Source: Girardia tigrina
Lineage: Eukaryota
Assembly (NCBI GenBank): GCA_001938485.1
Contig: MQRK01224546.1
Span: 1-64,000 of the forward strand
Reading direction: 5' to 3'
DNA: 64,000 bases
Shown one piece after another: positions 5,457-64,000 of this stretch (its first letter is position 1; each line of letters opens with the position of its first letter). Position numbers and translations under genes: made by a program. Under the pieces are notes generated by a model. That model ran no database searches and had not been told where the DNA came from. It saw only the letters and a program-made list of their open reading frames with translations.

Positions 5457-6320
5457 CTTCTTTGGTGCGAACACGTTTTGGCTTGTTCTTTCCGCGCTTT
5501 CCATGGACACTTCCAGTCGCTCGAAAATCGTCAATCCATTTTACAATGACTCTTTTTTCCGGAATCTTTGCTCGATCATTTCTTGTTTCACTTCGGATTC
5601 GAGTTCTGAGCTGTGCATAATCATAGGCTTCCTCAACAAGCATCAAAACGAGATTAGCTTTTTGCTGATCCGTACACGTCATTTGAATCAAATTTTATGG
5701 TAAAACTTTCTAAGTTCATTTAAAAAAACGCTTGTTAAATTTTTCGTCTCAAATTTTTTTTTTAATTTTTGATGTTTTTTTTCGATTTTCTTTATATACC
5801 ATCAGAATTTGGCGACGCTCAGGATTCTAAAAATGTATACTTTACCTATAAAAAAGTAGGTGGATAAAAAGATCCAATAGAAAAGTACCTTGGAGTTTAT
5901 TTTACCCTGTTTAGCTCCAAAACAACGAAAATATGCATTTTCAACTGGTAGTAAATTATGCACTGCTTATGAGGCTTACTTTGGTGTTCCTGTCACTGAT
6001 CAAAACGAATCATGGGCCTCACATATCAGTTGTGATATTGCCGGTCAAATTTAGGAAAATGGCTAAATGGTAATCTCAGCAGCATGCCTTTTTGAATCCC
6101 TCGGATATGGAGAGAGCCAACAAATCACCACGATGAATGCTATTACTGTATGGTAGACATTTCCCAATTTAAAAATCCCAGAGATGGAAAAAGTCTTATT
6201 TATCCCATCATCTTTAGCCCCCGTGCTCCACTCTAAAGAATTACCAGTAGCTTAACCACCACCTTTAAAAGACATCGTTGACGATGAGTTTTCTCATAAA
6301 GAAGATAGTGACGCTGACGT

Positions 6321-6848
6321 GGATCATTCCAGCTCTGATCTCAGCACAATTTGTTCAACATTTACCGGGCACATCTATAGCATCCGCCCTGCTAAACTGA
6401 GATCTCCATATATTGGATCGGCTGAAGTTAATGAGAAACGTTTAAATAACGATCAATTGCAGAGACTCTATACATGCAATCCAAAGGCATTCATGGATAT
6501 CATTCGACCTAAAGTTAAAGCTACTGCAAAACCTTCTCCGCAGGCTTTTACTGATAATGTAAATGAACACAATCGTGCTACTCTCTTTGTTCTAGACTCT
6601 TGATTGCCCTATCTCTCGTAAAGCTGAGTTTGATTTCCAACCTCCATCCAGTATTAAAATTGTGAATTGTCTTCAGTCGAAGGATAAGTCTTCACCCGGC
6701 CAAAGTGGTATCTCTTACAAAGATATCCTCTATTGTGACCCTGAAGGGATAATTTGCGAGAAAATCTTTTGTATGATCTTAAAAACCAAGACTGTTCCGA
6801 CTGACTTGAAAACATTTAGCCCTCTTATGATAACAAAAGCTGATAAGA
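6321..6848 (+). mobile_element. Internal fragment of the NeSL-like element (inverted copy of ~15633-16158)
   Basis: Near-identical peptide DHSSSDLSTICS...ATLFVLDS...KDILYCD to ORF 15732..16319(-). Confidence 0.9.
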
Positions 6849-12899: not shown

Positions 12900-15800
12900 A
12901 CATCTAACACAGATAGGAGTGTGTCATGAAGTTCTAGTATGAACTCACAATTCGTCTACAGAATCTTCTTCGTCTAACAGCCCCTTCCTGGTGTAGAAGA
13001 GTATCTCTAGGATTGTGTTTAGAATCACGAAACTCCGACAAGTCGTGGGCATCACGTCCATCACAAAAGGATTTCCACATTCTTGCAGACCATCGGATGT
13101 TTGATCGGACAGAGGCAATTGCAATGACCTTTTTCTCTGCCTGATAGGAAAACGGCAGCTAGTGGTTTGTTATTGGCAGGGATCCATGTGCCAAGCGCAC
13201 CTACAACAAATGTGTAAAGCAAAACTGTGTGATCACGGTATTTATCTTTAATTGCATCGCGGAGACGCTTGTACTTAGCCAAGTTGTCTCTGTTCGCGTT
13301 GTCCAAGTTCTCCTTCTCATCAAATGGACACTTCCCATTAATCAAACTATTCGCTTACGATCCAGAAAGAACACTTGCAAATCAACCCTCAACGTTGAAT
13401 AAACAAACCTGCAGGTGACATTTACATACAATTCAGCATTGCAATACTCTTGGATTTTAGTCTTTAAAATGTCAACCCCCGTGTGAGCATTTATATAGGC
13501 CTGAAGAGTATCGCAATGAGAAACAACATGAGCCAAAGTCTCATTGTAGCCTCTACACTTACGACAAACAACAACTTTCTGGTAACGGCGTCCAACTTGA
13601 AGTGTATAGGACCGACTACGATGAACAAAATCACATTCAAAGTAGGACAGACGACTATTGAAAACTACAGAAGTTGAGAAACCAGAAAGAGAGAGAAGAG
13701 GTGGAATGACCAGCACTAGTTTGCTTCTTCTAGTACAGTCCGTCGCATATTTATTAGAACGGATGAAATTTGATTGAAATATTTGAATTTTAAATTTTTC
13801 AATAAATAATTATTTCAAGGTTAAATATATTTTAAATTTAACAAATTTCATTTACAGGTATCTTGTTTTAATAATATGTTTAAACGTTTATTATTTAAAT
13901 TCATTTAATATTCATTAGAACGATTTTATATTTAATTTATTTGTAAATATTATTTGTGTTTATATTATATAATTCAGGTTAGATGTATGATTTAAATATT
14001 TTTATTTATTTTAGAAATTATTATGAATCATGAAATTGAAATATTAAGAGATAGGCAAGCTGAAATGTCGTTTGGAAAATTAGCTAAAAATATGGAATAG
14101 TAAAGTCAGATACCCATTATATTGTTAACTCTAGTGAAAACGAAAAAAGAAAGACTGGACCAAAAGAAAAATTAACCAAAGGCGATAAACGAAGGATCCA
14201 AACCGTTCTCCAAATGAAGGCTACCGAAAATGCTAAATGTTCAAGTAATGACGAACTAATGGTGGAAGAAACCTGATACGATTCATTCTGTAAAAAAATG
14301 GAGATAAGAAGAGATGGATGACTGTCACCAAATTTGACGGTGATCCCATATTTCTCATGTAGAATATGGATTACATGTTGGATTTTATTCCACCAGGATC
14401 CAACAGCCGATTGTTTATAACCCGTATTGATCCAGTCAAGGATACTTACACGACTCATCAGTTTTGAGACATGTCGCAAAGTAATTCGAGCAGCTTCTTT
14501 CACAAAGATATCAGGTGATGTTAGAAGGTAGTATGAGTGTGTGACTCATTGCACAAGATACTCATCAAATGTAGATGTAAGACCTACTCCCCCATGAACT
14601 TTGAAAGAATACAGGTAACCGCTAGAAGCTGATACATGAAGACTTAACAGTTCTTTGTACTTCATTCTAATCAGAACATCCCGACCTGTTGTAAAAGCAG
14701 TCAGATCTGGAAACGGAATGTAAGTGTTACGAAAGTAAAACACCATTTTAGAATGCACAAAGGTCTGATAAGCATGAAATTTTTGAGAAGGAGAGAAAAC
14801 AGAGTTCTTCAGAATCTCAAGATCATCAAGAACATTCTTAATCACTTGTTCCGGAGTGTGACGAAGAAGACGGGAAATAAAACAACCCAAATAAACATAA
14901 CCTTCATCAGCCTTTTTGTGTGGAATCGGTTGATCATCAATTGTTTTCATGATATGGAAAGTCCATATAGGCACACTTTGAACGTCGGAACTCCGTACCA
15001 GTGAGTTTGATATACTTCGAAGCAGTGTTAACCAAAGTTTGAAGAGCAAAGCTAGATGTGCCAAAGAGAACTAAATCATCTGCATATGCCATACAAGAAA
15101 TGGAAGTTTCACCCATCCGAACTCTAAGAGGGAAACCTAACGATAAAGCTTATTTAAAATGGGGTTATACCGATATTAAATAGAAGCATTGAGAGGGGGC
15201 AAACCTATCGAACACCAACATTCATTGCAAGACGGTCAGTACTTTGACCTTTACAGACGATTTTAGTGTGACAGTCGCGATACAGTTCCCGAATTATTTC
15301 AATAGAGTTGAGACGAAGGCCCATTTTGTCGAGGACGAAAAGGATATATTCAACAGAAATAGTAATCAAAAGCCGCCGCAATGTCCATGAAGGAAAGATG
15401 AAGCTCAGCTTTCATACCATTCGTATAATAATCAATGATGGCACGAAGAAGAAAAGTGTGATCAGTACAACCATTCGCTGGACCAAGACTTTTCTGAAGA
15501 GGGTGGAGCAGGTTGTTCTCTCGTGTCCAATCATTAAGCTGCCAGTAGAGGAGAGTTGTAAACAACTTGTACAAACATTCCTGAAGTGTAATTCCCCGTC
15601 AGGAGGATGGAAGATGGTATTCACCCTCCTTATCAGCTTTTGTTATCATAAGAGGGCTAAATGTTTTCAAGTCAGTCGGAACAGTCTTGGTTTTCAAGAT
15701 CATACGAAAGATTTTCTCGCAAATTATCCCTTCACAGGTCACAATAGAGGATATCTTTATAAGAGATACAACTTTGGCCGGGTGAAGACTTATCCTTCGA

Positions 15801-18800
15801 CTGAAGACAATTCACAATTTTAATACTGGATGGAGGTTGGAAATCAAACTCAGCTTTACGAGAGTAAGGGCAATCAAAAGAGTCTAGAACAAAGAGAGTA
15901 GCACGATTGTGTTCATTTACATTATCAGTAAAAGCCTGCGGAGAAGGTTTTGCAGTAGCTTTAACTTTAGGTCGAATGATATCCATGAATGCCTTTGGAT
16001 TGCATGTATAGAGTCTCTGCAATTGATCGTTATTTAAACGTTTCTCATTAACTTCAGCCGATCCAATATATGGAGATCTCAGTTTAGCAGGGCGGATGCT
16101 GTAGATGTGCCCGGTAAATGCTGAACAAATTGTGCTGAGATCAGAGCTGGAATGATCCCGGATAATTCTGACAATTCTGACAGAGTCACAGCGAGTAGAA
16201 GTAGTCGGGTGAGGATTGAATTTTGGCTGATGATTTCGCAGAACAAACTTTTGAGTAAAAGTACGGATGGTGTCCATGTTAATCCGATTATCAAAAGAGA
16301 CACCTGATAAATTTCTCATGTATCCACAGATAAGAGATCAACTGTCAATAAACTTGTAGGAAGTGACTATATTAGGTGGAGAGTCAGAGTAAACCATACT
16401 GATAAGACAAAAATTAGAGCAGAATTGGGTGAATTTATCAATAATTGATTCATATATAGATAGTTGTTGGAGGCCAATCGGATCCCAAATGGAGATTGTG
16501 TTAGAGATTAGATCAGAAGCGACAAAAATCGACCATGTCTGACGGCAAAACAGAGGGTATATAAGTTTCTTTTTATGAGCAAGATCTCTAAGACAAAGGT
16601 TTTCCATAATAAAGTCTCGGTTCACGACAGCGATGGCTCTAGAGAGAGTGGATGGGACGACAAAAACATCCTTACAGTTGATTGACGCTTCAGCAAAAGC
16701 ATCCACATGTCGGTGAGAGAATGAAAGGAAAGGGAGAAGGGAAGCGCTAGCAGGACCATTCCCAATGTCATCCGAAAAGGTGCAATTTTCCAATGAATAA
16801 ACAACTTTATGAATCAACAATGCCGATATATCCAAGTTGGAGCCAGGCACAACATGGTTGTGGTCCCTACAGAAGTTCGTATATACATTAGTGAATCGTT
16901 GAATAAGAGAGCAAGGTTTTAGGGAGGTAAAGAATTCAGAGAGGACCTGGGATGAGTAAACTGATCGTTGAGGACGGTCAGTAACAAAAGTGCAGAAAAG
17001 TTCAACAACAGAATCATCAATAATTTTTTCACCACAAGCAGCAGATTCCCGTAGTTTACCTATAGCTTTAGTTCTGTCTATTTGACGACCAGCCGATTTA
17101 GAAATAGAGGAGTAAATCGAGAATTTGATTAAGAAGGATTTGACGTTTTCTTCAGAAAGAGGACTGGTACAATCAGCCGAAGCAACTCAAAAGACTCGGA
17201 AAAATTCCATGTAAGGTTGGATGAAGAAGCCTTCAGATTTTATAAGAGAGTTACAAATTTTAAAGAAGGATTCCTTGTCAATGAATTTAAGCTTAGGAGA
17301 CTTAATCGGAGCCTGTTCATGACCTGATTCCAAATCAGTATTAGAGGTAACATCAAAGGATAAATGTTTGAAAAAAGAAGTAAAGGAGAGATTCGAGAAA
17401 AATCCACAGTTGCTGAAGACAAAATGAAAAGTCATAAAGGAGACAAAAGCAGAGAACAAGTTTGTAACAGTAGGAGTGGAAAAATGATTCCTTTTCTTGA
17501 AGGTTTCAATTCTTGCCAAAAACGATTTCTTATTAATGAAGTCCGATTTGCCATTAAGGATATTGAATTTAATAGGTTTATATCCTAAGCTAGTAACGCA
17601 GCTCAACATAGTGTCCGAAAAGATACTATATGACTCAAAATTAAATTTACTGCAAACAAAATTAGTGAACCGAGAAAAGCAATACTGATTGATAATTAAA
17701 GGAAGACGCCTCTTCAAACAGTATCGATCAAACGCCTGGAGAAAGTTTCCATAGTATAACAATTTTATCATTGAACCGATTGGTAGCAGTGCTGTTATTA
17801 GAGAGATAGGATGCAAAAAACTGCCTAGAACACTATTTGAGTAAGGACCCATTAAGGTGAAATCAATATCTAAGCAAGTGACCGCAAGAATTTTGTATAG
17901 ATAGCTTCAGACCAAGTGAACTGAATTTTATTCTTTTTTGAGAAGATAGACAGTTTTTGTTGAAGTCTCGTATTATTAATCTTGATCTTCCTACTGTTAA
18001 ATATGTTAATAGGGTAGCTAATCGCAAGATAATGAATGAATTCAAGAAAAATTTCATCATTATCAGGAAAAGGATGATAGATATTTTTAAAAAGCAAAAA
18101 GGCAAGGAAGCTGTCAACCACCAGATCAGTTCCAAACATGAAAAACCCGTTTCTCTGAGCAATAGAGGCATATTTATCTAAAGAAGCGACATGATCAAAT
18201 GAAGACAGTTCACCATTGGCAGATACAAAGGCAACTTTGTCTATATTCGTTTTCAAAGTGGAGAGATGAATTTCTGTAAACTTTTGAAGAGTTGGATCAG
18301 AGAAGATATCTTCAGGATTACAGCTATATTGGCAGGTAATAAACCGCAGGAAGATAGAGAAATTCTGATCCGAGTCCAGAGAGATGTTAATGGCCTTTCT
18401 TATAAAAAATGAGGAGAATGATAATGAGAAGGAGAGTTTATTAACACGCAAAGAGCCACCATTGAAGATATTAACTCCTTCCTCCATACAAAAGAAATGA
18501 AAAAATTCCTCAAAAGTTTTGTCAGGGAAAACATCAATAGAATTGAAATCAAAAGTAGAAGATAAAAAATGCACAAATCTAGTTTTCACCACAAATCTAG
18601 TTTAAAATTTCCCGCATTCCAAAAAATCGATTAAAATAATTGAAAAAACTTTCTTCACATATTTGGTTAAAAAGAGAGAGGTGCTTATTAAAAATAAATT
18701 CCTTTGGCTCCGTTGCAGTCACTTTCAGGTGAGGGACAGAGTCCTTCACTCTACCGGTTTCCCCCATCGGATCCATCATTCTCACACTTCCGTCAACATT

Positions 18801-22700: not shown

Positions 22701-25700
22701 AATCGTGAGATAAACCGCCGTTCCGGGAAATTTCGGGATCGCGAATGTTATTATTTAATTTCTCCTCTCGAGCCAGAGTCTACCCACAAATGCTTGAGCG
22801 TCGCGGCAACGCAACCGCTGCGAAATCCACTCTCGCACCACTCAATATTAAGAGAAATATCAAACCGGACAGCGAAAAAGATTTCATCATAGAGGTCTGC
22901 GCAATGGTCAAATAGGAATTTGTCCAGAAAGTCAACACCTGCAACACAATCTAATCAAATCCCGAACATATTTTAATCCTCTTTTGAAAGATCATGGAAA
23001 TGATGTTAGCGACTGTAGCTCGGGCAGTCTGTCGGCTCAATTCAGCTCCGAACCACTTAATTGTCGCGATCATTTCTGGTCGAAGACCGCGCTCAGTCGC
23101 CGGCCCGTCCTCTGAAAATTGAGACACGCCGGTCTGGTCGTTGTTTCAGTCAGGTTTCGGAAAGTGCGCTGACTCGAAGGATTAAAATAAGATGATGCGA
23201 GCAAGTGTTGGCCAAAATCTGAAACGAGAGCGATTTTTGAGTCGGTGATAAAGAGTCATTTGTTTCCAGAAGGCATAACAAACATCTTTGTTTTATAAAA
23301 TTTATTATTTTTCATTTTAACACTTTTTATGTATTTAAACAACCGTCTTGATCTTCACATTTTTCATTAATTATTGTTGTGTCAGTTCTAAATAAAAAAT
23401 GTTTTTTGCGTTAATTTTGGTATTACAGGTATATGTGTTAATTTTTACATATTTTTAATTATAATAAAACAAACAGAATTCAAGGATGTTAGAATTAATA
23501 ATTGAATCAATAAAATATATATATATATTTCAAATTGTATTATTATTAAATATTACAATTTATTCACATCCCAATAAATTGGTGTCAGAAATTTTCAATT
23601 TCATTAAATTATCGACAAAAAAAACAATGAATTATTTACCAAATGTTATCATCATCGTTATCTTATTCAATTATTGTTGAACGAAATAATGTGAATCGTA
23701 TCAACCCTGTTTCCCACTGGAAATGTCATTCAAAAGTCTCACACTTGGTGAAGTCCTCGACGGCGATCGAATGACCAAATCGCTCTATCGTATCCGATTC
23801 CCGCAAAACACGGAAAATTCGATTCTCTGTCGCGTCTCGTTGACACAATCCGACATGCAGCGATTTATCCGCTCTATCGAGTATCTCTACTATCTTGAAT
23901 TCGTGTTGGACGAAATTCTGATCATCGGATTCATCGGCAATCTCGAGGAGAATAAATTGCTGTAGCACATGCACAAAGCAAATCTTTACACGCACGATGA
24001 CATCCGTATCGAGTTTAAGGGGAATCACATCATTTACCCGTTGATCTTGATCACACAATCAGATCCGATCCCTCTCGCCGCGTTCGTCGATCGCAATAAA
24101 TCGGTAATTTTCACTTTCAAGTTCTCGGTCATATTGATCGAGATAGAAATGAGAACCAGCGATCGATTAGAACGGATAATCAATATGATTTTTTTCTGGG
24201 TGACAGTTGAGATCCACTGGATTACTAACTTTCTCGTGCTCGTGTTCATCTTGGTCACGTTTATCATGTTCATAATCAGCCGATTTTTGAGACGAGATTT
24301 CGTGAGATATAATCGATTGATTGAGTCAAATGAGTCATTGGGAGACGATCAAGACGACCTTGGATTGAAGATCGTTCATAACAACGTCTTTCACCCACCA
24401 TACGGCTTGCTCGTGTTTTCGGCGATTGTTGGGACTCACTGTCAACTGTCAACTACCCATGTGCACGATCCTCACATCCAAATTAAAGAAATTATCCAGC
24501 AACATTCTCGTAAAAATAAACTTTTGAAATCCCCGTCTGTTAAATCAAAAAATGCACCAAAAGTCCGGAAATTGAGTCAAAATTGTCGATCGAATACCGA
24601 TTCAGAGAGCAGTACAAACAATGACTTCAAATCAGAGGTTATAATTAATGATCTTTTTAAAATTTTAACATATATTATGTTAATTATACATGTACATAGA
24701 AACGTTTTATTTTGTATCGAACATGCACAACAATAACCAATAGTGTATGAAAAAAACACAAAAAACCTCTAAAATTATACATTAGGTCACAACCAGAAAA
24801 TATATTACGTAGAGTTTCAAAACGGAACCACAGTCAAAAAATTATATACATATATTACAGAAAAAATCAAAATACCAACACATACTCAATTCTTTCTAAC
24901 TACAATGAGCAAATTATTCCTTTTTTCAAACCAGCCATTGGCAATGTCATTGCCGCATTCCAATCACCACTACGTTGACATACATATAAAAGAACGTAGA
25001 AGGATGGAAAATGAAAGGGACACTAATGTTAAACACTTTACCCCACCGTGCGTTAAGTTTTTTTAGATTCTCAAAAGTCCGCGACCTCGTGGCTTCAAAT
25101 TCACGAGAGTTGGACTACTGCATCCAATTTAGGAACTGAGACCCAAAAAGCATATAGTCTTCTTTCACTATTACCCCAGGAATATTTGGCTAGAATAACC
25201 AACTTACCAACTATCTTAGCAAATACATCAGCCTACAATAACATAAAACAAGCAATTATTTGGCTCACAACACTGTCACAACATCAATTACTTCAAACTT
25301 ACTTCAAATCAAATTCTATCGGCACTACCCGTCCATCTCAATACTTAAAATAGGCCCAGACCGACTTAATGGCATTAGGAATCTCGATTACAGACTACAA
25401 TATTTTCAAACAACTATTTACCAGCACGTTACCGCCACAACTGCAAATATTGTTATCAGTCGTTCCTCAATCGGTTTCCGTCGTAGAATTGGCAAAAATT
25501 GCGACTTTGTCAATAGAGATCACTAGGGCTAACCAAGAACAACCAGCTTTAATAGCAAAAGTTAGCACACAACCATCTGAGATCGAGATCTTGCGTTCTG
25601 AAATGCAATCATTTAAGGACGCGGTAACACAACTAACAGCCAGTATCGCCAAACTACCCACTTATTCTAATCGTTCTCGCGTTAAAAGTCCACAAGGCGA

Positions 25701-45640: not shown

Positions 45641-45959
45641 AAATTTCATCTTTCAGGTACAACGGAAGTTTTGACAAGGAATCACTTTATCAGACAAGGA
45701 TTTAGATATTTGAGAGTCGTGGAAGAACTTAAATTCGACTGCACCGGATTGAGAAGAAAATGGAGAAAGAAACAAGAATTATCAAAACAGTAGTAGAAGC
45801 TGTGGTGAAACAAAATTATCCCTAGCTTTAAAAATATGAATAAGTTGATGAAGGATCGCCCAGAGATCCTAGTGGGGAAGTAATTTTGCAACATGAGAAC
45901 TGGACCGAGCAAGGAAGAGAGGTTCTTAAACGTGTTTTCAAGGTGTTTTTGGAAGAAAA

Positions 45960-48900
45960 AATTGTCTTTCAATTATCTCATTTGTGTTATGGTGATATGG
46001 ACTAGAGAAAATTAATTCGATACTTTTTGCTTCCAACATTTCTTTTACTTTATTCGCATAGAAACATTTCCCGCAGTCTACATGGATCTCTTTTAGTGTT
46101 CCAAATTTTAATATCCATTTCTGTAATACCATTTGTACTATTGTCTCTTCATCTTGTCTTTAAATTGCTGTCAAGCTCACATATTTACTGAAATGGTCAA
46201 TTATTCCCAAGATGTATCTTTCTTTTCTTACTGTCTCATTCCATGGTCCGAATATGTCTATATAAACTTTCTCAAATATTTCTGACGTTGTTATTTTTAT
46301 GTTTTCTTTCTTTGTCTTTGTGGTTATTATCTTTGTTCGTTGACACTCCATGCATGATCCTAGCACCTCTTTTACCGTTTTCTTTTCTTCTTCCATGTCA
46401 AACTTGTCCCTCAGATATTGGTATACTTTTTCGGCTCCCGCATGGCACAATAATCTATGTGTTTGTATGATAAAATCGCTTCTTTTTTCTTTCGGTATCC
46501 ATTCTTTCATACCCACTCGGGTTTGGCTCCTCGTAGTCACTGCCAATAATCTCGTCTTGTTTTTTCCTTTTTTTTGCTTCTTCGTGTTCCATTTGGCATT
46601 GTGTACATGTGTCGCAATTCTGTCTTGATAACATATCAGCGTTGCCGTGCAGTACTCCCTTTCTGTATTCTATTTCGATATCCAAACTACTTAAGTAATT
46701 AGTCCACGTTTGGAATTGAGCCGTGAAGGGTTTCTTTGTGTATAAACCCTAATTTCAATACTATTATTCTGTCTATATATGTACTATTTAGTAATTAATC
46801 AGATAAAGTATATTAATGTATATTATACTTGTATTTTATGTTTTACTATCTTTATATTACTTTTTATTATATTTATTATGTGTAATTTTAATTTATAATT
46901 TATGTATATTATATTTATTGGGTTCTCGATCAAAAGACATTATCATGAATACAAAAATTTATTTCTATAACAATTTGAATTTTTTAAACAAATATTTTTG
47001 AGGAACTTTTGTACTTTCTTTTTTACACAACCAATATAAATAAAAATAGATATAAACAAAAATATGGTTAGTATATTTTTTATAAATTAAAATTCTATAT
47101 TTTCTTTAATAAAAAATTATAGTGAATTAAAATCTTGTCACAAAGATTTTGTTGCATCTTTTATTAATTTTTCAATTTTATGGTACATTTAAATTTACCT
47201 GTTTCTCAATTACATTTTCCCAAAAAAATTAAAATCGCATTTTTTATTTAAGTCGAGTTAATGGTTTTACAATTATTTTTTAATTCCTGTGGTGTTCAAA
47301 AAAACACAAAAAACAATTTAAATTAAAATTCAAAAATTAACAGAATAAACAAAAAAAATAATGTTTTGTTTTACTAATCAAAAAATTGGCGAAAAACTCA
47401 AAAACACACGAATCCACAAGAACACCAACCAGAATCGCAATCAGTATACTCAACGGACTGTCAATCGTCAACCCAACTATGCCCAGACGAGACTCGTGGA
47501 TCTATTCCAATTATTGTGTCGATTCGGGTCAAGTATTCGTTTTATACATCAATAAATTTTATATTCCAGTCGTGTCTTATTTCTTCCCGTTCAAACGACG
47601 GAAGTTGGTGGTGCAAATTGCACTCGCCAAAATTCCCATTTTAATTTCCAAAAGAAATTATAATTACTTTTCCAAAAAGAATTATAACCACACTTTTAAT
47701 TTACTTTGATTTAAAAGTTACCAAAATGGTTTAGTTTACTTTAATTTCGCAAATAAAATATCAAACTTAAATTACCTTTTATTTTATTTCAAATAAATAT
47801 TTTCATCAAATTTGAAATTAACTTTTTTTACTTTATAATAAATCTTTACATAAATCTTTTAACAACCCTACCGTAAAATTTATTTTATTTCTTACATAAA
47901 TTAATTTTATACATTAAATTTCTGAAAATCTTATTTTAACATATGTATAACAATATTTTACGGAATGTAATTGCTTTTTTAATAATTTGATAAGATTCAA
48001 AAATTGTATATTTTATGAACGCTCCCAACAATATTATTCTTAATTTTAATTTTATAATTATTACACGCTTGACTACATTAAGTAGTCAAGCCAATATTTC
48101 AATTTTAAAATTTAAAAAAAATCATTATTAAATTGATTAAAAAAGAAAATCATTAAATAAATTATCTTTAAGACTTTCTAGCGTCTTTCATTTTGCCTTT
48201 TTCACAACCTGAATTTTATGTTATTTACAATCAACTATTCATTATCATTCATTTTTTTCCTCAACTGAAGAAACTGCTGCATTAGCTTCACAAACGATAA
48301 TTGCCATCCAATTTAAAATACTCGATATCACATCAAATCAGTTCAACCGCAATTTGCAATTCCAACTTCTTGTGCACATCGAAGCTGAAAATTGTTGTTC
48401 ATTGACGATCAAATTTTGACGTTCAAAATTTTATTGACCAGAGACTCAAAGGACAATTTTGTAAAGTATATATTCATTGTTTTATTTTTTTTTCTTCCAT
48501 CAGCTCATTTCTCTTCTTCTGTGATCTATATTCATTGTCTTCTTTTTCTCTTTCAATTTTACTGGTTGTGAATTATATATTATTAATATAATTTTTATTT
48601 TTGATTATTATCTCGTAAGTAAAAATTACTTCAAGTTCCTAAATCCGAACTTTAGTTAATTTTTACACTTTGCATGAAACATGAACGTTATAGCTTTATT
48701 ATCCGTTCTCAATTTAAATCTCTTCCCGTACAGATGATGGTTGAAATGCTGGCAAAAATAAAAAATTGCCAAAAGTTCTTTTCTTGTTATGTAATAACCT
48801 TTTTCATGTGCTGATATTGAATGTGATCCATATGCTATTACTTGCTCTTTCCCCGAATCACTTATTTGTGACAGTGCCGCCCCTATGGTATCAAAACTGA

Positions 48901-49450
48901 CATCTGTATCTAGAATAAATTGTTTTTCGAAATTTGGGAAGCTCAGTATTGGTGCCGCTAACAGTGCTTCCTTCATGTCCTTAAACTCTATTTCGCATGC
49001 ATCTGTCCAGATTAACTTTTCTTTATTTAAACCACACATTCCTTCTAATACTTTGGCTTTCTTTGCATATTCTTTAATAAACATTCTATAATAGTTGCAA
49101 ATTTCTAAAAAAACTTCTCAAATTCTTAATACATTTCGGCCTTTGAAAATTCTCTATCGCTGCAATCTTTTCTGGATCTGTCTGTATCCCTTGGTCATTT
49201 ATTATGTGTCCCAGAAATTTTACTTCCGGTCGTAACATCTTACATTTCACTGGTTTTATTCTTAGTCCTGTTTGTTGGATCCTCTCAAATACTTCTCTTA
49301 TCACCTTGTAATGTTCTTCCTTTGTACTTGTCGCTATTAGTATGTCATCCAAATAAACCGATACCCCTTTCTTTATTGGTTGTAAAACCTTTGTCATTAG
49401 TTCTTGGAATGTTCCTGGGGCTGCGGCTATGCCAAAAGGCATACAAAGCT
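45960..49450 (-). mobile_element. Gypsy pol remnant (RT-RNase H-integrase) split by an AT-rich insert at ~46742-48685
   Basis: MPFGI..APGTFQ, VYLDDILI, LDTDVS, KELLAI, NADMLSR, HRLLCHAG..CMECQ, VYIDIFGP, HVDCG, IIERQF. Confidence 0.9.
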
Positions 49451-49670
49451 TCAAATCAAACAAAGCTTCATGAATCGCCTAATGTACCTAGTGATCAATC
49501 ACAAGTACCATGGTTACTGTAACCAAGATACATAACCTTTTATTTTACATGTAAAAGCCTATGTAATACCTAAAACATGCATGGGTATTCTACACCAGAA
49601 GAATCATATATTCATTTTTTTTATTTATTTAAAGTAACACATTAAAACAAATAATAACTTTAAAAAACAT

Positions 49671-50200
49671 TCATTTCTTTGAAATATAATTTTGACACAA
49701 CGCTAAACACTTTTTATAAGCACAGTGTGAACCATGTTCACGATTTATACAAGTAATGTTTTTTGGTATCGCTTTTAGTTTGTCACATTTATATATACAT
49801 ATTCTCAGATCAGGAAATATAGACTTTATCACCTTTTCCTTTCGTCCATCATCATTATCCTTAACATAAAACAATGCTTCAGCTAAATTACATCGTGATC
49901 GAATGTCTCGCATTAGACAATCCTGACAAAACCTGAAATTGTGTTCTTGCCACGTCAATTTATGATGATGTAATGTTAAATAAGCATTTTTTCTTTGTGC
50001 TTTGTTTGAACAGCAATGCATTTTAAGTCTAGAAATTACACCCAAACATTTTATTTCATTTGCAACACTAATTTAACTTACTGAAATACATAATGTAATG
50101 GATTAAACATATTGTCAACAGACATTATACACAACTCTTTAATCATGTCCTCATCATTATTAACCACAAATCTTTCAAAATAAATAAAGAAGATAGACAT
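49671..50200 (-). pseudogene. Polinton accessory ORF, DEDD-exonuclease-like with C-terminal Cys/His cluster
   Basis: MSIFFIYFERF..IKELCI, HKLTW, FYVK..K, C...H..HCA; frameshifted. Recognised by motif resemblance only. Confidence 0.5.
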
Positions 50201-50238
50201 TTTTCAACAATAACAATTTATTAACATAACAACTTTGT

Positions 50239-50612
50239 TTATAACAATTGGCGTTTGAGCCAGTCTATACAATAATTTCCACAAAGAAATGCTAATGGAT
50301 TTTGATACATTACATAATTATATATGACAGGTTGTTGCATTCGTTCCAATTTTGTTACCAACGTTGATGGGTAATACATCCCAAGGGGATCGAATACTCG
50401 TATAAGATCTGAAGTCACATGTACTGCAATCCAGTGTTCTGATGGTAAATTAGCAGTCTGAGTATTAATTACATATCCTCCATCGAGTAGATAATCTGGA
50501 ACTTTATCCAGCGAATATACTACACGGAATTGAGGATATCCTTTCGGTGCTTTTTCAATCTGATATGTACTATATATATAAATGTAAAAGGTTTAGATAC
50601 AACTTACTTCAT
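50239..50612 (-). CDS. Adenain-like cysteine protease, 111 aa, with a 38-nt intron (50570-50607)
   Basis: ATG AA|GTAAGT...TATAG|T ACA gives MNTYQIEK; then VINTQ..PSEHWIAV, FDPLG, YQNP..FLCGNYC (His-Asp-Gln-Cys). Open to TAA. Confidence 0.88.
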
Positions 50613-50658
50613 GTATTATTTCTGTTCGTAATTGCTGTTTTTAGTTCTAATGCTGTGT

Positions 50659-52928
50659 TTATACAATAACTGTACCATCTTTTCGTATTTGTATCTCACT
50701 ATCAAATACTCCATATACATACATTGTAATTGCATTATCTAATGCCTTATGGAATCTTAAATCCAATTTTAAATTGCCTGTTCGTGGCATTTGTATTTGA
50801 TCAACATGAAAATCAGGTGCCAAGACAAATGTAAAGAAGGGGTACTTTGTTTTGAAATCATCCATAGTGATTCCATTATTCATATTTTTATTCACGAATA
50901 CTATGTTCAATATTATAGACTTGTAGTACGCTTCAGTAAGATCATTCTTTTCAAAGTCAATTTTATATGAATCTCTATAATCAATTCCTCGAGATATGGT
51001 TAGGGAGCTAATATTACAGTTGTCAAATGCAGAGCAATATGTTGCGTAATCTCAACTAACTTCTTTACTATCTTGAAATGTTACCAATACAAATTTTGGT
51101 AAATGTTCCTCACTAAACAGATTGTCCTTGTATTCACCATGTGATCCTTTAGGAATTGAAAATTAAACAATTCTTGCTTTTCGAATGGGATATATAGCAT
51201 TTTAATTATCAAGACCCATAATATGAGCCAACAACTGAATCTGTTGTACGAACACGTCGTATTAATAACTTTGTACTCTCAATATATATTTGAGGCTTAA
51301 TCCCTGTTTCAGTACCAGTCTTTTCATATTGAAAGATAACTTTACTTTCATTTCGATGAATCTTGATTGTTATATTGACATTTGGTATGAGATATTTTGG
51401 CTGCTCAAAGAAGTCCAGATTTAACGGTCCGCATAATGTCATCAAGGCTGATTTATGCAACCATTTGAATCTTTCAGTTGCATCACCATACCTCATGGAC
51501 TTGAGAAACGTATTCTTCGTATCTGAACTTAAATTTAATGTAGTCTCAATGATAGTCTTTTGATAATAACTATCATTAGTGTCCTCAATCTTTGTATTAT
51601 TGAGAAACAAGGTCATATCTTTAAATAAGCAATGAAAGAGGTAATTGCTCGGTGTTAATTTTGTAATGTCAACAGTAATGTCTTTTCCTGATTCATCAAC
51701 TGCTTTTATTTTAATGGTAAGCATTATATAATTCATATCAATGTATTCATCTTCACTACCGATAATATCAAACTCAATATGAGATTTATTATACTCACTA
51801 ATACTATCTTTGGGGTTGTTGCGGCAGCAGCGCAGTGGAATGTCATTTTTAGACCTTCCACGAGTCATCCAGGGAAGATGAGTGCATTCGATAGCGTTGG
51901 TGTCTAATTTATTATTAGCATCTTCGATTTTATTATTATTATTATTTTTATCTCTATTATTATTATTATTGTTAATTTCATCTTTATTGTTTTTATTTTT
52001 ATTATTTTTATTTTTATTAATATTTTTACTATTATTTTTATTATCATTTTTATTATTATTTTTATTTATTTTTATATAAATATATATAATAATTACACAA
52101 GGATATACGTTCATTAATCGTCCGAAAACACCGACGGACTTTGGAATATATGAATACTTGGTCTTTCGTTCGCAATTATTGGAACCACTGATGAAATAAT
52201 CTTGTTGAAACAATTTCCCAAGATTCGAATTCAGAGCGTAATCGAGAGTGGTACTATATAATTCGACCATGACGCTGATTGACACACACTCTCCATGAAC
52301 TCCCGAAGTAACGTATACGTAAATTCTCTGTAATTGCAAATCACTGTCGCTTTCATGAACACCAGTGGTCGGTTTGACACCATGTTCGTTGGTGATTATT
52401 TACCAAAACTTCGTCCTCATACTGTTTCTACAACTTTGAAATATTGTCATTAATTTATATCATTTATCATGAATTTCTTCACAAAATTTGATATGCAATC
52501 TCCGATCGAGAATTATTACATGATTATTTTCAAATGTCTTTACAAAATAATCCACATTAAAAATATAGTCGAATGGCATGAATAATGTTCTTAGATAATA
52601 ATTGAAATCAATATCTCTCGTATCAAATTCTTTTATTATTATTTCATTTTACAAATATAAAAACAATATAAAAACGAATATAAAAACAATATTAAACGGT
52701 TTAAACAAAACGTTAATTTCAAATATATCTATATATAACCATCATTAAATTAAATTTAACTTTTTTGTAAATAACATTTTCTTTTAAAAAATGAAAGAAA
52801 ATATTTAACTAGAAATTTATTTAAAGAAACGAAACCGAACAGGGGTAAATATCTTCAAAAGCATATGATTCTATAACAACTTGTGGTGGAGCTGGACTAA
52901 ATATGTCCAATTCCGATTTAGCACTCAT
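50659..52928 (-). pseudogene. Polinton major capsid protein (double jelly-roll, PY), interrupted
   Basis: MSAKSELDIFSPAPPQVVIE..IYP | KDS..IEFDI..EYIDM, PSNYLFHCLF, LNLDFFEQPKYLIPNV, AIYPI, FVLAPD, GNLKLDLRF. Solo-LTR insertion and frameshifts. Confidence 0.88.
51817..52841. mobile_element. 1025-bp solo LTR (TGTT...AACA, 5-bp TSD GGGGT; BEL/Pao- or Gypsy-type)
   Basis: TSD at 51812-51816 and 52842-52846; removal restores EDIYPKDSISEY. Confidence 0.85.
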
Positions 52929-52930
52929 TC

Positions 52931-53313
52931 TCAGAATATGGTTTTCATACGTTTTGTTTCTTTGTTTTTATCTAAACCTTTTCATTTTCTTCCTCCACCA
53001 CATTGATCCATTATTGAAATGGCTTCACGAAAAGCATCTTTAGCATTAGATTTAATTTCTGGTAAAATCTCAGCAGCAGCTTCCTTCAATGCTTCAACAG
53101 TTTTTTTAGTACGATTCAAGACATTTTCATCAGCACGTAATATTGCTTTACCAGCAATCTTTGCTACATGTATACCAAATTTTATCATTATAGAAATTGC
53201 ATATCTACCTAATGTCGCCTTCCAATTACCTCATACTGTTTATCTCTAAAGTATGGAAGATTACCACCATGTAGAGGACCACAATACAATTGTACAATAT
53301 CTCTATCAATCAT
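52931..53313 (-). pseudogene. Polinton core/pVII-like basic protein
   Basis: MIDRD..LHGG^NLPYF..QY (adenain (M/L/I)xGG^x site), amphipathic helix, QCGGG plus basic tail; frameshifted. Confidence 0.65.
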
Positions 53314-54354
53314 GTACTTTCTTGAAATGTAAAGTTAAAATAGTTTTTGCTCCTAAACTAATCTCAATTGGTCTCCCACTATCATCACGAATATTTACTT
53401 CAATTTTGTTTATACATGTGGATGAAATAGGTAAATACATGGGAACAACTGGTGCAAAATATACTGGTTCTCCATGCTTGTGTTTTGAAGCATCTATCCA
53501 AATACATTTTAAAAGAGATACTCGATCTGATCCAACCATTATTGGCTCTACATTAGTAGAATAGATGAATATAGTAGAATATTTGATTGAAGGCATTATT
53601 CAATTTTATTGGGAATACACCTTTATCATCCTTGAGATTGAATTCAGTTTTTGTAAAACCTAAAACCATTGCTAAATGTTTATCAAAAACAGCTTTCTGT
53701 ATATAATCTTGGAATTTGAATGATAAAATATTATTTTCTTCCAATTTGATGGTCTTGAAAACTTTCTAACATTTGGTTTTGAGATGACTTTCAACTTTCT
53801 CACAACTGTTTAGATTTATATCATCTTTAAATACAAATGTTTCCCAAATGGAATCATTTTCAACTTGAACTTTTATGGAAAGCGTTGTATTCAAAACATT
53901 TTGTTCTAAAAGTTCATTAGCTGAATATGATATATATTCGTTTTGTTCCTTTAATACAGAATTAAATTTCAACTTGAAACCCCATTTTTGGGCTTCATTT
54001 TGATGTGCAAATAAAACCTCAAAAACATATTTTGATTTTATGTATAATCTTTTCTCATAGATACTTATCAATACCCATTTTAAGGTGTGAGGTTTCATTT
54101 CCAATATCATTCCTTTGCGTGATATTGAAACGGTTTCAGTTGTTAAACCATTGAAATTGTATAAATAATTTATATGTGTCCTTTCGTATTGTTGCAGGAG
54201 TGTAATAAATCAATACATCTATCATGGCTACCTGCCATATTCCTGTCAGGTTAATACTATTCTCAAAGTCTACAATGAATTTGCTTGCTTTGTTGTCTGG
54301 TTGAGTATCCGGACAGCTATTGCTAGGTAATACCATATAAAATGAATCCATCAA
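53306..54354 (-). pseudogene. Polinton minor capsid/penton (PX)
   Basis: FYMVLPSNS..PDN..F..INLTGIWQVA; IFIYST.VEP.MVG..LLK; IEVNIRDDSGRPI..TLHFKK; split across frames. Confidence 0.85.
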
Positions 54355-54439
54355 TCAATAATGTTTTCGAAATGTTCTTGATTTCGTTTATATATTTTAA
54401 TGAATTAATACTCACTTCTCAAATCATGTTAATACTTCA

Positions 54440-55463
54440 TTAATTTTTGATTATATATTTAGATGTAATCCAACTGGGATTTTTATACCCATGCCATTTA
54501 ACTAAATATTGTTTATATTCCCCACTACCTTTGGATTTGATGATTTTCTCAACTCTATATACATCGGGCTTTTCAGTAAGAACCTGTAATTCCTGTGTAT
54601 AGAACTTGCCTTGAACAACATCATCATCATCATCTATAATCTCATACATTACAGGCATTTGTCTTATATTTATTCCACTTATTCGAAAATCTTCATCCCT
54701 CCAATTATTGTTAAAGTTCTTGATAAAAGGTATCGTGCTTCCTTTACTGATACGAACATAGTCACCAATTTTATATTTAGGCCTCATATTTCTTTGCATC
54801 ACTCTGTAATGCGCTGTACATGTCATCAGTAACATCCACAGGACGAAGGCCCTTCAAACCTCGATGTGGAGTATTATTATATCCCTTGATAAGTTTAGGT
54901 AGGACCGTATACCATACTTTTTTACCAATATGTGTTACATATTTTGTAATCTTTCCTCTCAATGTGCGATTGAATCGTTCAATAATACATGCCTTATATG
55001 TTGAAAACACTGAATAATGTTTTATTTCATACTTATCGAATATATCCTTCACTTTACTATTGTAGAATTCGTTACTTAAATCAGTTTGTAGAAATTTAGG
55101 CTGAACACTTTTCATCATTGTTTGAATTGCAACAGCCAAGTCTTTGGCTGTTTTTCTCTTTACATGTACAGCACGAGCATATCTACTGAATACATCAATA
55201 CAGGTCAGAATATATCTGTACCCCTTATTGATTTTCGCATATGAAATCATCTCCATTAAATATATCTGCCAGATCCAATTGACTGACTTCGATAAGTACC
55301 TCCTCGTCGGGAATCTCTTCAATAATGGTTTGTTGAGACTGTATGCGAACTGCTATCTCAACCACTTGTCTGCCTCCATCTTGCTGGTCTTTGATACTTT
55401 TGCCATTTTTGATACGCTTCCGAAACCAACTGGGTCTTCGGAGTTAAACCATATCTTTTCCAT
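54440..55463 (-). pseudogene. Polinton retroviral-like integrase with C-terminal chromodomain
   Basis: WQIYL (first D lost), CIDVFSRY, QTDLSNEF, IERFNRTLR, YNNTPHR, GDYVRI, GKFYTQEL, QYLVKWHGY. Confidence 0.92.
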
Positions 55464-55556
55464 CAACACAACAGTTGCACTTAATATTAAATGCTAGATT
55501 AGGAAATGAAGACGTTGAGCCCATATCGAGCGTTTATATACTAATTCAATTACCGT

Positions 55557-56038
55557 TTATATTTGTTTATTAGCATTATCATCATTTTCAATAGCATCTA
55601 GTGCCTTTTTCGTACCATATGATATAGCTCCATTCGCAACTGCTGGAACAATAAAACTGGCAAGCCATTGAAAGAATGGTATTAAAGCAACTCATACGAA
55701 ACGATCACCGTCTTGATTCCTTTGCTGATTTTGTTTCTTTATTTCATGTAATACTTTTGCCCCAAAATAATTTGTCTTTGATTTTGTAGGTGGTATAGTA
55801 AATCTTTGATTAAGAATATGTAGTTTTGTTTTTAATGCCCTTGCTTTGAACATTTTTAGCAATGTATCTTGATACTTCTTCAAAGACCTTTTTTAATTGC
55901 CAATTTTTACATTGCCAGCCACAATATTCATCAGAACTTCAATGAAATCCTTCTGTACTTATGTAATAGATCCCATCTATTTTTTCCGCTTTTTAATAAT
56001 GCTTCAAAATATGGAATACTTCTAGTAATGTGCATCAT
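55557..56038 (-). pseudogene. Polinton small basic/core-like ORF
   Basis: Basic region, then QDGDRF..LIPFFQWLASF hydrophobic tail; lies between ATPase and integrase; disrupted. Confidence 0.45.
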
Positions 56039-56280
56039 CATCTATCAAATCTAACTGTCATATATACTGTTTATACCATGTCTGTGGTATTTTCTCAAAG
56101 TATTTTCGTGCAGCAATTATTTTTACTAAAGTTTCATAAATAAACTTTTGATTATTTGGTTGTTTTAAAGAAACTTTATTTGATTTCTTTACATTTAACT
56201 CCTTCGATTTCGTTTTAGAAACCCTCTTTGGTTTGATTTTAACATATACTTTTGTAAAATTCATAATTAATATATTTACA

Positions 56281-56610
56281 TCATAACTTTTGTTTATACA
56301 ATGTAATGTATTTAGTATGAAATAGATTTGTTTTTAGTCGTTGATCATCAGGACATTCTTGAGAAAAATCTATGAAAAGGTATTCATACGGTTTACATGT
56401 TGCATCCATGAATGAATCTATAAAATACTTCTTATCATGAAGAAATGCTTGTATAGCTAAATAATCAACTACAGTTTTATCTCGTGGATTCTTGAATATT
56501 ACCAAGTAATGAACATTTAAATTCCTCGTTCGATGATTACCTCCTTGATAAAAAAAGATTTTGAGTTATGAATATAACCATCACTTCTTTATGTCTGGAA
56601 ATTTTCATCA
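56281..56610 (-). pseudogene. A32-like packaging ATPase, C-terminal half only
   Basis: SRH..VIFITQNLF, LNVHYLVIFKNPRD, DAT.KPYEYLFID, RLKTNLF; no Walker A/B upstream. Confidence 0.85.
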
Positions 56611-57628
56611 AGATAATCGCATACACAAGGACCTTTTTGTTTGAATCGTCTATTTGCTCAATTTCAACGTCCTTTTGATCAGTTTCATCCTTTGAAATAG
56701 CTTCCAATCTATTTATTTGTTCACTTTCATCCTCATTGTCTGAATTCAAGAGTGGTGTAACTTCTTTGCGTTTTGCTACATCATCAAGATAATTGCACAC
56801 ACAAAGCCCTCCTTGAATTGAAGTGTATATTTGCTCACTTTCATTCTCATTTTCTTCAAGAATTGTGTCTATTCGTGGTTCAACCACAAAAATTGTAGTA
56901 TTGTCCATAGTTTAGTGTACCGCATATATACTGTATATCATGATTTTGTTTATATTATTGTTATTAACATATACTATAAAAATAAAAACAAGGTGTACAA
57001 TTTGAAAGTTATGTATCTTGGTTACGGTAATCATGGTACTTGTGATTATACTTGTGTACATTAGATGATTATACAGATGTTATGTATTATATTGTTGTAT
57101 GTTTGAAGTACAATATGAATTTTTACATGTAAAATAAAAGGTTATGTTTTGGTTACGGTAACCATGGTACTTGTGATTGGTCACTAGGTACATTAGGCGA
57201 TTCATGAAGTATTGTATAATGGTCAATAACACGCATATATCATATGGGTTTCATATATATACGAAAAAATCAATTTTTGAGCAATTTTTTGAAAATTTCA
57301 GAAATGTTCGAAAAAATCAGTTTATCAGAACTTTTTCGAAAATGTTAACATGGAATCTAAATGTACGTATATGGGTTTCTATTCAAGTACATGAGCATTT
57401 TTTTGATATTCTGCTTTCTTGTACCTTTAAAATTGATGTGCACTTTGAGCAAATTTGCACATTATGCTTATTATATAGAAAAATAATCAATATATGAAAT
57501 TTCTAATTGCACATTCAGATAAAGAATCAAAATTGGCATCAAACACATGATATCGATTTTTGACACTTGTACTTTTAAAAAATTTTATGTATTGATTTTT
57601 GCATTTTTGCACATGTACAACTTGAAAA

Positions 57629-57765
57629 GCACTGTGCTAGCACATTAGAAATGTGCGGCACAGTGTGCAATATTGATTAGCACTTTAAAAATATCGATTA
57701 GCACATCTGGGCACTGTGCAGGGATCGATTAGCACACCTAGACACTGTGCAGAGATCGATTAGCA
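57629..57765. repeat. Imperfect ~31-bp tandem repeats (CACTGTGC...TCGATTAGCAC)
   Basis: GATTAGCAC four times and CACTGTGC three times. Confidence 0.85.
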
Positions 57766-57798
57766 CTTTTTTCTACGGTCCCTAGTGGTAGGGTCACG

Positions 57799-58069
57799 GT
57801 TGCTACGGATACGGTAACCGTTACCATGGTAACAACCGCCTTGGATCACTATCTCGGTTGCTAATGAAAAACTCCCTTGGTTACCGTTGCCATGAGAACC
57901 GAAACAGTTATTAAGGAACCGGGAACCAATCAGAACCGTTGCCAAGGTAACCGGAACCCTTGCTAAGGTACCAAGCGTTTCCAAGTGAACCGGAACCGTA
58001 GCTAAGGTGATCGGAACCGTTGCTATGGTGATCGCGACCGTTTCTATGTTAACCGTTGCTATGGAAAAC
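57799..58069. promoter_or_regulatory. Array of ~12 RFX X-box-like palindromes, mostly 21-bp spacing
   Basis: GTTGCTACGGATAC 57799, GTTACCATGGTAAC 57820, GTTGCCATGAGAAC 57886, GTTGCCAAGGTAAC 57938, GTTTCCAAGTGAAC 57977, GTTGCTATGGTGAT 58019, GTTTCTATGTTAAC 58040, GTTGCTATGGAAAAC 58055. Confidence 0.6.
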
Positions 58070-58149
58070 GACCTCCCCCCGGGGGGTCTTGTGTGTCGAA
58101 TGCCCATTTTTCCCATACTTTTGTTTATTGCGTCAAGTGTTATTAAGTC

Positions 58150-62979: not shown

Positions 62980-64000
62980 ATTTTTTGTAAGAAAATGTAA
63001 ATTATTTAAGGGTAAAATTTTTGTAAAAAATATAAGATTATTTAAGATCAAAATATTGTAAAATTCTTTGTAAAAAAATATATAAGATTATTTAAGATCA
63101 AAATATTGTAAGATTTTTGTAAAAAAATGTAAGATTATTTTAGATTTAATATTGTAAAATTTTTTGTAAAAAAATATAAGATTATTTAAGATCAAAATAT
63201 TGTAAAATTCTTTGTAAAAAAATATAAGATTATTTAAGATTTAATATTGTAAAATTTTTTGTAAAAAAATATAAGATTATTTAAGATTTAATATTGTAAA
63301 ATTCTTTGTAAAAAAATGTAAGATTATTTAAGATTTAATATTGTAAAATTCTTAGTAAAAAAATGTAAGATTATTTTAGATTTAATATTGTAAAATTCTT
63401 TGTAAAAAAATATAAGATTATTTAAGATTTAATATTGTAAAATTCTTTGTAAAAAAATATATAAGATTATTTAAGATCAAAATATTGTAAAATTCTTTGT
63501 AAAAAAATATATAAGATTATTTAAGATCAAAATATTGTAAGATTTTTGTAAAAAAATGTAAGATTATTTTAGATTTAATATTGTAAAATTTTTTGTAAAA
63601 AAATATAAGATTATTTAAGATCAAAATATTGTAAAATTCTTTGTAAAAAAATATAAGATTATTTAAGATTTAATATTGTAAAATTNNNNNNNNNNNNNNN
63701 NNNNNNNNNNNNNNNNNNNNNNNNNNNNNNNNNNNNNNNNNNNNNNNNNNNNNNNNNNNNNNNNNAATATTGTAAAATTCTTTGTAAAAAAATATAAGAT
63801 TATTTAAGATTTAATATTGTAAAATTCTTTGTAAAAAAATATAAGATTATTTAAGATTTAATATTGTAAAATTCTTTGTAAAAAAATATAAGATTATTTA
63901 AGATTTAATATTGTAAAATTCTTAGTAAAAAAATGTAAGATTATTTTAGATTTAATATTGTAAAATTCTTAGTAAAAAAATGTAAGATTATTTAAGATTT
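62980..64000. repeat. 47-bp AT-rich minisatellite
   Basis: Unit AATATTGTAAAATTCTTTGTAAAAAAATATAAGATTATTTAAGATTT, about 20 copies, spans an N gap and runs off the window. Confidence 0.95.

Follow-up and report, generated by a model that had tools for sequence, protein, structure and literature searches.

The 64,000-nucleotide stretch of Girardia tigrina DNA analyzed here (positions 1 to 64,000 of contig MQRK01224546.1, hereafter the window) contains an integrated Maverick/Polinton element that is most likely a dead, decayed copy with an internal deletion, its loss of the DNA polymerase gene pPolB being an ordinary deletion. Probably, one internal deletion removed pPolB and joined the interior of a gene for an acidic protein to the middle of the packaging ATPase gene. 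The window is AT-rich eukaryotic DNA crowded with transposon remnants and includes 1,347 N. All viral genes lie on the minus strand and, read from right to left, come in the order acidic open reading frame (ORF), C-terminal half of the ATPase, two basic, core-like ORFs, rve integrase with a chromodomain, penton-like gene, small basic ORF, major capsid gene, adenain, and a last ORF (Table 1). A first-pass annotation had proposed such a block of virion and integrase genes on one strand, and the ORF list, Pfam matches, and comparison with relatives all agree with it. The copy has the rve integrase, A32-like ATPase, double jelly-roll capsid, and adenovirus-like cysteine protease of Mavericks/Polintons, and no pPolB was found in the window. 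It is a Maverick by descent and build and, because it lacks pPolB and the left end, a derivative and not a complete member. The family is an abundant one, and none of the relatives found is a named member.

The absence of pPolB, also claimed in that annotation, extends over the whole 64 kb. The best tblastn match with seven pPolB ORFs of relatives as queries had an E value of 0.025, and the 1112-aa pPolB of the relative L035 gave no match at E≤0.5. No helicase or polymerase match was found among the element ORFs scanned, of which the acidic and last ORFs have no family assignment.

Relatives of the element were drawn from sequencing runs, protein collections, and contig scans. Of the 20 sequencing runs that contain part of the stretch, four were used for contig mapping (X1, X2, X3, and X7, the first two from organism A), the other 16 having small shares only and giving no evidence of habitat; for these four runs 30 contig pieces are listed, besides 210,913 further pieces and 4,861 loose ends. 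The intact ATPase relatives P0007 (239 aa) and P0008 (234 aa) match the window from about residue 131 onward, and residues 1 to ~130 of P0007, with Walker A and Walker B, are gone in the copy, as the annotation had noted of the Walker motifs. On the other side of the join, the acidic protein P0095 aligns over residues 1 to 92 at 79% and 91 to 102 at 83%, and the match ends at 56604; P0095, P0098, and P0099 are all 121 aa long. The acidic ORF had been described as occupying the junction. It does end at the join, but it is a family gene and not a junction product. The two closest metagenome loci, L001 and L002, can be aligned at the DNA level over 2.2 kb with ~80% identity, and the alignment breaks off exactly at 56605; L001 is identical at 32 of 40 bases on the ATPase side and at 14 of 40 beyond the join. 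A single join (56605/56606) thus cuts two genes internally, the acidic gene at about residue 102 and the ATPase at about residue 131, and the protein alignments suggest at most ~2 bases common to both sides. Since the join removes Walker A and Walker B, packaging would be lost besides replication, and the loss of both is more easily explained by an accident than by a streamlined virion segment. One 100-aa protein, P0100, was considered as a sibling of the join and rejected, as its C terminus comes from another reading frame of the acidic gene and not from ATPase sequence.

An assembly chimera, in which two copies of a high-copy repeat are fused, could also account for the join. In its favor, the window is a scaffold with gaps, the family is highly repetitive, and no listed contig bridges the join. 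However, the ≤~2 shared bases are too few for an overlap-driven mis-join, both sides have the orientation and order expected of a single element, and the right flank is found at 0 to 1 differences in both X1 and X2, making a chimera extremely unlikely.

The relatives suggest that pPolB probably belonged to the ancestral gene set. Locus L035 (12,666 bp) reads pPolB (on the opposite strand), an ORF, ATPase, core-like gene, integrase, penton, small basic ORF, capsid, adenain, a TATA-binding-protein (TBP)-like gene, and the last ORF, which is the window order plus a pPolB arm and the TBP-like gene. Its pPolB matches the Pfam-confirmed pPolB of L007 with an E value of 8e-85, and in L004 and L007 pPolB lies upstream of the ATPase on the same strand. 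In the ATPase tree, where the window row fills 41% of the columns, the window nests in a 19-row clade (100/96) together with L035, L004, L007, and L005. Four of the 10 clade loci carry pPolB (a piece of it in L005), and the other six have ≤1.4 kb upstream of the ATPase. The TBP-like gene of L035 (10207-10698; Pfam TBP, E 2.8e-10) sits between the protease and the last ORF and has a homologue on the minus strand of L009 (4583-4975; E 3e-08); none was found in the window copy. L035 itself is a near-complete eukaryotic Maverick inside a bacterial metagenome-assembled genome of the genome_contigs collection, most likely as a binning contaminant.

Another reading holds that the nearest subfamily is naturally polymerase-free or segmented and borrows its polymerase, with the ATPase cut as a small private deletion on top. 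pPolB was seen on no contig of the 10-row subclade holding the window, the ORF upstream of the ATPase in L001 shows no detectable homology to that of the pPolB-bearing L004, and gene order varies in the family, with the integrase of L002 followed directly by the small basic ORF region. Tlr elements also show that pPolB can be replaced by a helicase in related elements (PMC4028283). On the other hand, the contigs of the subclade are all too short to extend to pPolB. In the surrounding clade, pPolB lies upstream of the ATPase in L035, L004, and L007, and neither a second segment nor a substitute replication gene was seen, though no host genome was searched for one. We therefore regard a polymerase-free subfamily as very unlikely and a subfamily-wide loss of pPolB as unlikely. 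As for the L001 ORF, homology to the corresponding ORFs of L003, L004, L012, and L032 was also considered, and BLASTP and profile searches found nothing.

Do any relatives share the join? Three listed contigs extend up to it from the ATPase side and continue beyond (record 23 of X3 and records 29 and 30 of X7), and none of the listed contigs bridges it: the matches of the three stop at 56605, 56605, and 56596, and their remaining ~670, ~720, and ~340 bases are other DNA. A metagenome scan with the window ATPase C-terminal half yielded 34 loci, 26 with Walker A upstream in the same frame and 8 cut by the contig end, and none of the 34 matches the acidic region. Among longer ATPase homologues, Walker A is present in 60 of 63, the remaining 3 starting later and keeping Walker B, and none of 79 ATPases carries the acidic N terminus. 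In all, the join was seen in no protein, contig, or locus of the relatives covered (the listed contig pieces, the 34 loci, and the 79 ATPases). One further locus, L036, which looks eukaryotic, contains a disrupted ATPase piece next to an unrelated gene; it was not used. The one-off deletion in an inactive copy that the annotation had offered as one of two options is thus the better supported, since the join cuts both genes, relatives keep both whole, and the clade has pPolB upstream of the ATPase. As the outcome that would refute its proposal, the annotation named a junction unique to this locus with all relatives full length. Within the relatives covered, this is what is seen: none of them showed the join, the genes on either side of it are intact there, and pPolB lies upstream of the ATPase in L035, L004, and L007. 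The contigs of the nearest subfamily end before the place of pPolB, and the comparison did not extend to other copies in the host genome.

Several observations weigh against a simple one-off deletion. The acidic frame runs across the join into ~20 ATPase residues, which would also suit a fusion that was once translated; a one-in-three chance can explain this continuity. The listed contigs of organism A (X1 and X2) are short, with none bridging or leaving at the join, so that host copies are not countable. Close relatives make up only 2 of the 34 loci (L001 and L002), whose sequence upstream of the ATPase amounts to 381 and 0 bases; pPolB is accordingly not shown for the nearest subfamily. Finally, the ATPase homologue search took proteins of at least 166 aa, placing bare C-terminal half products outside its range.

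The ends of the copy bear on whether it could have been mobile. Inverted arms at 49460-49556 and 57121-57215 (97 bp, 92.8%) are real, as annotated; they are not the element ends, though, but the inner portion of what is likely a ~1.1-kb repeat. On the left only ~90 to 130 bp of the arm survive, and neither the outer ~910 bp of the repeat nor the left terminus has a partner elsewhere in the window, so that of the two termini only the right one is present in this copy. Its left edge is instead a short joint in which an 11-mer is duplicated locally, as is typical of polymerase-theta-type repair, and which leads into the cut reverse transcriptase (RT) of a Gypsy element. This is likely a deletion or repair joint and not an integration site, and because of it there is no left terminus to compare for a 5- to 8-bp target site duplication. 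On the right, family sequence extends as far as 58119, and the region tabulated as the right repeat would be a terminal repeat whose left partner was lost: its depth is far above that of the flank in all four runs, joints tie its inner unit to 57234 and beyond, joints exit at 58119 in X1 and X2, and low-depth, near-identical flank contigs begin at 58091. The right terminus (58119) reads inward 5'-AGTATGGG, with a single AGT and not the (AGT)2 motif of PMC8097293, and agrees with the AG/AGT-type ends given in that paper. A GC-rich palindrome lies at 58070-58088. Between 57175 and 58275, summed contig depth peaks at ~10 to 30 times gene depth in all four runs, pointing either to internal tandem units or to many short, repeat-only derivatives.

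The other option of the annotation, a helper-dependent or segmented form, found no support, the join being in no relative examined and the left terminus being lost. Stated broadly, a satellite or defective-interfering polintovirus, either a polymerase-less derivative or a whole polymerase-free subfamily spread in trans by full-length relatives before this locus decayed, is unlikely. Its narrower version, a deletion that arose once and was then copied in trans by full-length members (non-autonomous or defective-interfering) with the locus as a decayed copy, we judge improbable. The family is very abundant in organism A, so that helpers are at hand, the right terminus is present, and the high repeat depth could mean many short derivatives; Kapitonov and Jurka reportedly described non-autonomous Polintons in zebrafish in 2006. 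Yet the join appears in no protein, contig, or locus examined, tandem units within the repeat and two repeats per element also raise that depth, and the left terminus is absent from this copy. Lacking one terminus, the copy would not move even when helped in trans. A scan of viral_contigs with the repeat motif gave 0 matches, and no amplified pPolB-less Maverick subfamily is described in the titles and abstract openings searched, a body that misses subscription literature and weighs little either way.

Under the preferred reading of a single internal deletion, a complete element would have integrated through its own rve integrase with the layout right repeat, acidic gene, pPolB arm, ATPase, core genes, integrase, penton, capsid, protease, and left repeat. 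Host double-strand-break repair may then have deleted the pPolB arm at the join with its ≤~2 shared bases, and a separate deletion may have taken both the outer left repeat and the 5' half of the neighboring Gypsy element. Decay would have followed integration. That the copy is inactive, as annotated, is clear from a 1-kb insertion in the capsid gene, from frame breaks or stops in most genes, and from the lost left terminus. Such lesions are found in the integrase, core-like ORFs, penton, small basic ORF, capsid, ATPase piece, and last ORF.

How does the copy compare with known elements? With Mavericks/Polintons (polintoviruses, for which Adintoviridae has been proposed; PMC8502044) it shares the rve integrase with chromodomain, A32-like ATPase, adenain, double jelly-roll capsid, penton-like gene, and a long repeat with a 5'-AGT end, and its clade relatives have pPolB. 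It differs in the lack of pPolB, the ATPase N-terminal half, and the left terminus, in a capsid lineage with few relatives and none named, and in having virion and integrase genes all on one strand. In the literature cited here, Polintons are 15 to 20 kb long with core genes (PMC4028283), terminal repeats measure 100 to 1500 bp and target site duplications 5 to 8 bp (10.1101/2023.08.22.554363), adintovirus-like virion genes appear confined to animals (PMC8502044), by which the type of element would itself suggest an animal host, and non-autonomous Polintons were not seen in anole (PMC3014272); PMC6431247 and PMC11131425 were compared as well. Degradation is common: 96% of 3,511 vertebrate Maverick loci are degraded (PMC8097293), and in Caenorhabditis elegans partial Polinton-1_CB copies occur, with 10 loci among strains having pPolB and the repeat without the integrase (10.1101/2024.01.15.575659). 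Stops, frameshifts, big insertions, lost repeats, and the loss of one arm are common to these and the present copy, which, in another host and family, keeps the integrase/virion arm and has lost the pPolB arm. Tlr elements lack adenain and, where pPolB would be, have a superfamily 1 helicase (PMC4028283). The copy resembles these and other pPolB-less Polinton-like viruses in having integrase, ATPase, and capsid genes without pPolB, and it differs from Tlr in having adenain and only half of the ATPase, with no substitute replication gene seen.

The locus itself is of little weight, since most Maverick copies are partial or degraded in the genomes where copies have been counted. The family, very abundant in the sequencing runs of one organism and with intact capsid and ATPase relatives of which none listed bears an informative name, offers a good opportunity to ask whether elements of this kind form virions. 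Were the join found to be amplified, trans-complementation among Mavericks would be demonstrated, and replication requirements could be tested by comparative genomics.

Table 1. Features of the Maverick copy and its left neighbor, in window coordinates
Feature	Position	Strand	Remarks
Ty3/Gypsy-type pol remnant (RT, RNase H, integrase pieces)	45938..49442	-	Non-viral; cut inside RT at the element's left edge
Left joint	49443..49465	.	23 bp between cut RT and repeat remnant; locally duplicated 11-mer
Left terminal inverted repeat, inner remnant	49466..49556	.	97 bp at 92.8% to 57121-57215 (from 49460); also 65 nt at 75%; weaker match on to ~49594
Last ORF	49671..50200	-	Two frames; tblastn E 4e-13 to last ORF of L035 (L035:10694-11212)
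Adenain-like cysteine protease	50239..50571	-	43% to L035 protease, E 1e-23
Double jelly-roll major capsid gene (predicted)	50659..52928	-	Split by insertion after codon ~29; frame break near 51232
Non-viral insertion, 1,037 bp	51809..52845	.	Inside capsid gene; skipped by contigs in 4 of 4 runs
Small basic ORF between penton and capsid	52982..53310	-	Two frames; same position as L035:8283-8618
Penton-like (minor capsid) gene	53306..54354	-	Four frames; 40% (E 3e-20) and 31% (E 3e-13) to L035:7259-8308
rve integrase with C-terminal chromodomain	54440..55487	-	One internal stop, one frame break
Two basic, core-like ORFs	55584..56280	-	Stops and frame break; 58-63% to L001:1298-1861
A32-like packaging ATPase, C-terminal half (residues ~131-239)	56281..56605	-	Frame break near 56552
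Acidic family gene with internal repeat	56604..56908	-	ATG at 56908; cut at residue ~102 of 121
Probable complete right terminal inverted repeat, ~1.1 kb	57005..58119	.	Internal tandem units; from contig depth and joints

Sequence comparison supports the assignments of the remaining genes to different degrees. The ATPase half is 89% identical to residues 150 to 239 of P0007, which matches Pfam Pox_A32. The integrase matches Pfam rve (E 1.3e-08) and Chromo (E 1e-04), and its pieces are 83% and 77% identical to the intact integrase of L001. The core-like ORFs contain five stops within the parts aligned to L001, where L001:1105-1350 occupies the place of the upstream one. The protease assignment agrees with the L035 protease, which matches Pfam Peptidase_C5 (E 1.3e-07). 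In the acidic gene, a 63-bp internal repeat matches at 81%; the repeat unit ends in a CVCxYLDE motif, and the number of units differs among relatives (121 aa versus 76 aa). Searches with the acidic ORF found no homologue of at least 218 aa, no Atlas match, and no fold or family, and P0097 (E 3e-04) was dismissed as a chance match to a repetitive bacterial surface protein.

The capsid gene belongs to a lineage (413 aa) with few sequence relatives, in six clusters, none of them named, and with no Pfam or NCBIfam model. The intact relative P0001 (413 aa, 94% identical) aligns to the window gene in three pieces at 91 to 100%, and the window-type capsid is 36 to 39% identical to that of L035. In a low-confidence structure model of P0001 (pLDDT 49), the top listed PDB matches are solely double jelly-roll capsids; Foldseek matches include the iridovirus, Sputnik, PBCV-1, PRD1, and mavirus capsids, with E values down to 2e-09 at a TM score of ~0.3, and in BFVD a MELD virus protein matches at E 2e-13. 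On this modeled fold, the window capsid is predicted to be a double jelly-roll major capsid protein. Intact relatives in public metagenomes form capsid clusters of 9 and 26 members and ATPase clusters of 3 and 33, with an informative name on none of those listed. In the viral_contigs collection, no relative was found with the integrase, P0001, or either of two alignments as the query, and in genome_contigs none was found with the capsid alignment. Summed contig depth of the family in X1 is ~0.5 to 1.1 million over most genes compared with ~200 for the flank contig, figures that are not copy numbers.

Three further names of the annotation have not gained independent backing. The penton-like gene has no family match and is homologous and syntenic to its L035 counterpart; its name is our assumption from position and a motif. 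The small basic ORF weakly resembles its syntenic counterpart in L035, with E values of 0.002 and 0.04 in a local search over 500 bp, and "pVII-like" is presumed from motifs and gene position, unconfirmed by any tool. The last ORF was uninformative in Pfam, PHROGs, ESM Atlas, and PDB, with a structure model at pLDDT 33, and "exonuclease-like" is likewise an unconfirmed assumption from motifs and gene position. A joint stepping back 1,117 bases (53300-54416) in all four runs suggests a tandem pair of penton genes in some relatives, and the order in L002 suggests that penton number or position varies in the family.

The insertion inside the capsid gene contains a degenerate beta-tubulin fragment (~52170-52399, minus strand; phmmer E 6e-11) and an AAT-rich repeat, and it may be a retrocopy or a captured host piece. 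To the left of the element, the Gypsy remnant matches Pfam RVT_1 (E 9.3e-21), RT_RNaseH_2 (E 9.6e-31), and Integrase_H2C2 (E 6.7e-10), and X3 contigs depart from the window at 49442 into other sequence. Elsewhere in the window, near-perfect inverted repeats at 5715-6847, 15629-16158, and 714-887 (281 bp at 99%, 144 bp at 97%, and 117 bp at 98%) probably belong to other mobile elements. An intronless TM9SF/EMP70 fragment at 23966-24736 (Pfam E 1e-18), amid Gypsy-type remnants, is probably a pseudogene piece. An AT-rich tandem array with a 47-bp unit, in which blocks are copied at 100% identity, fills positions 63004-64000.

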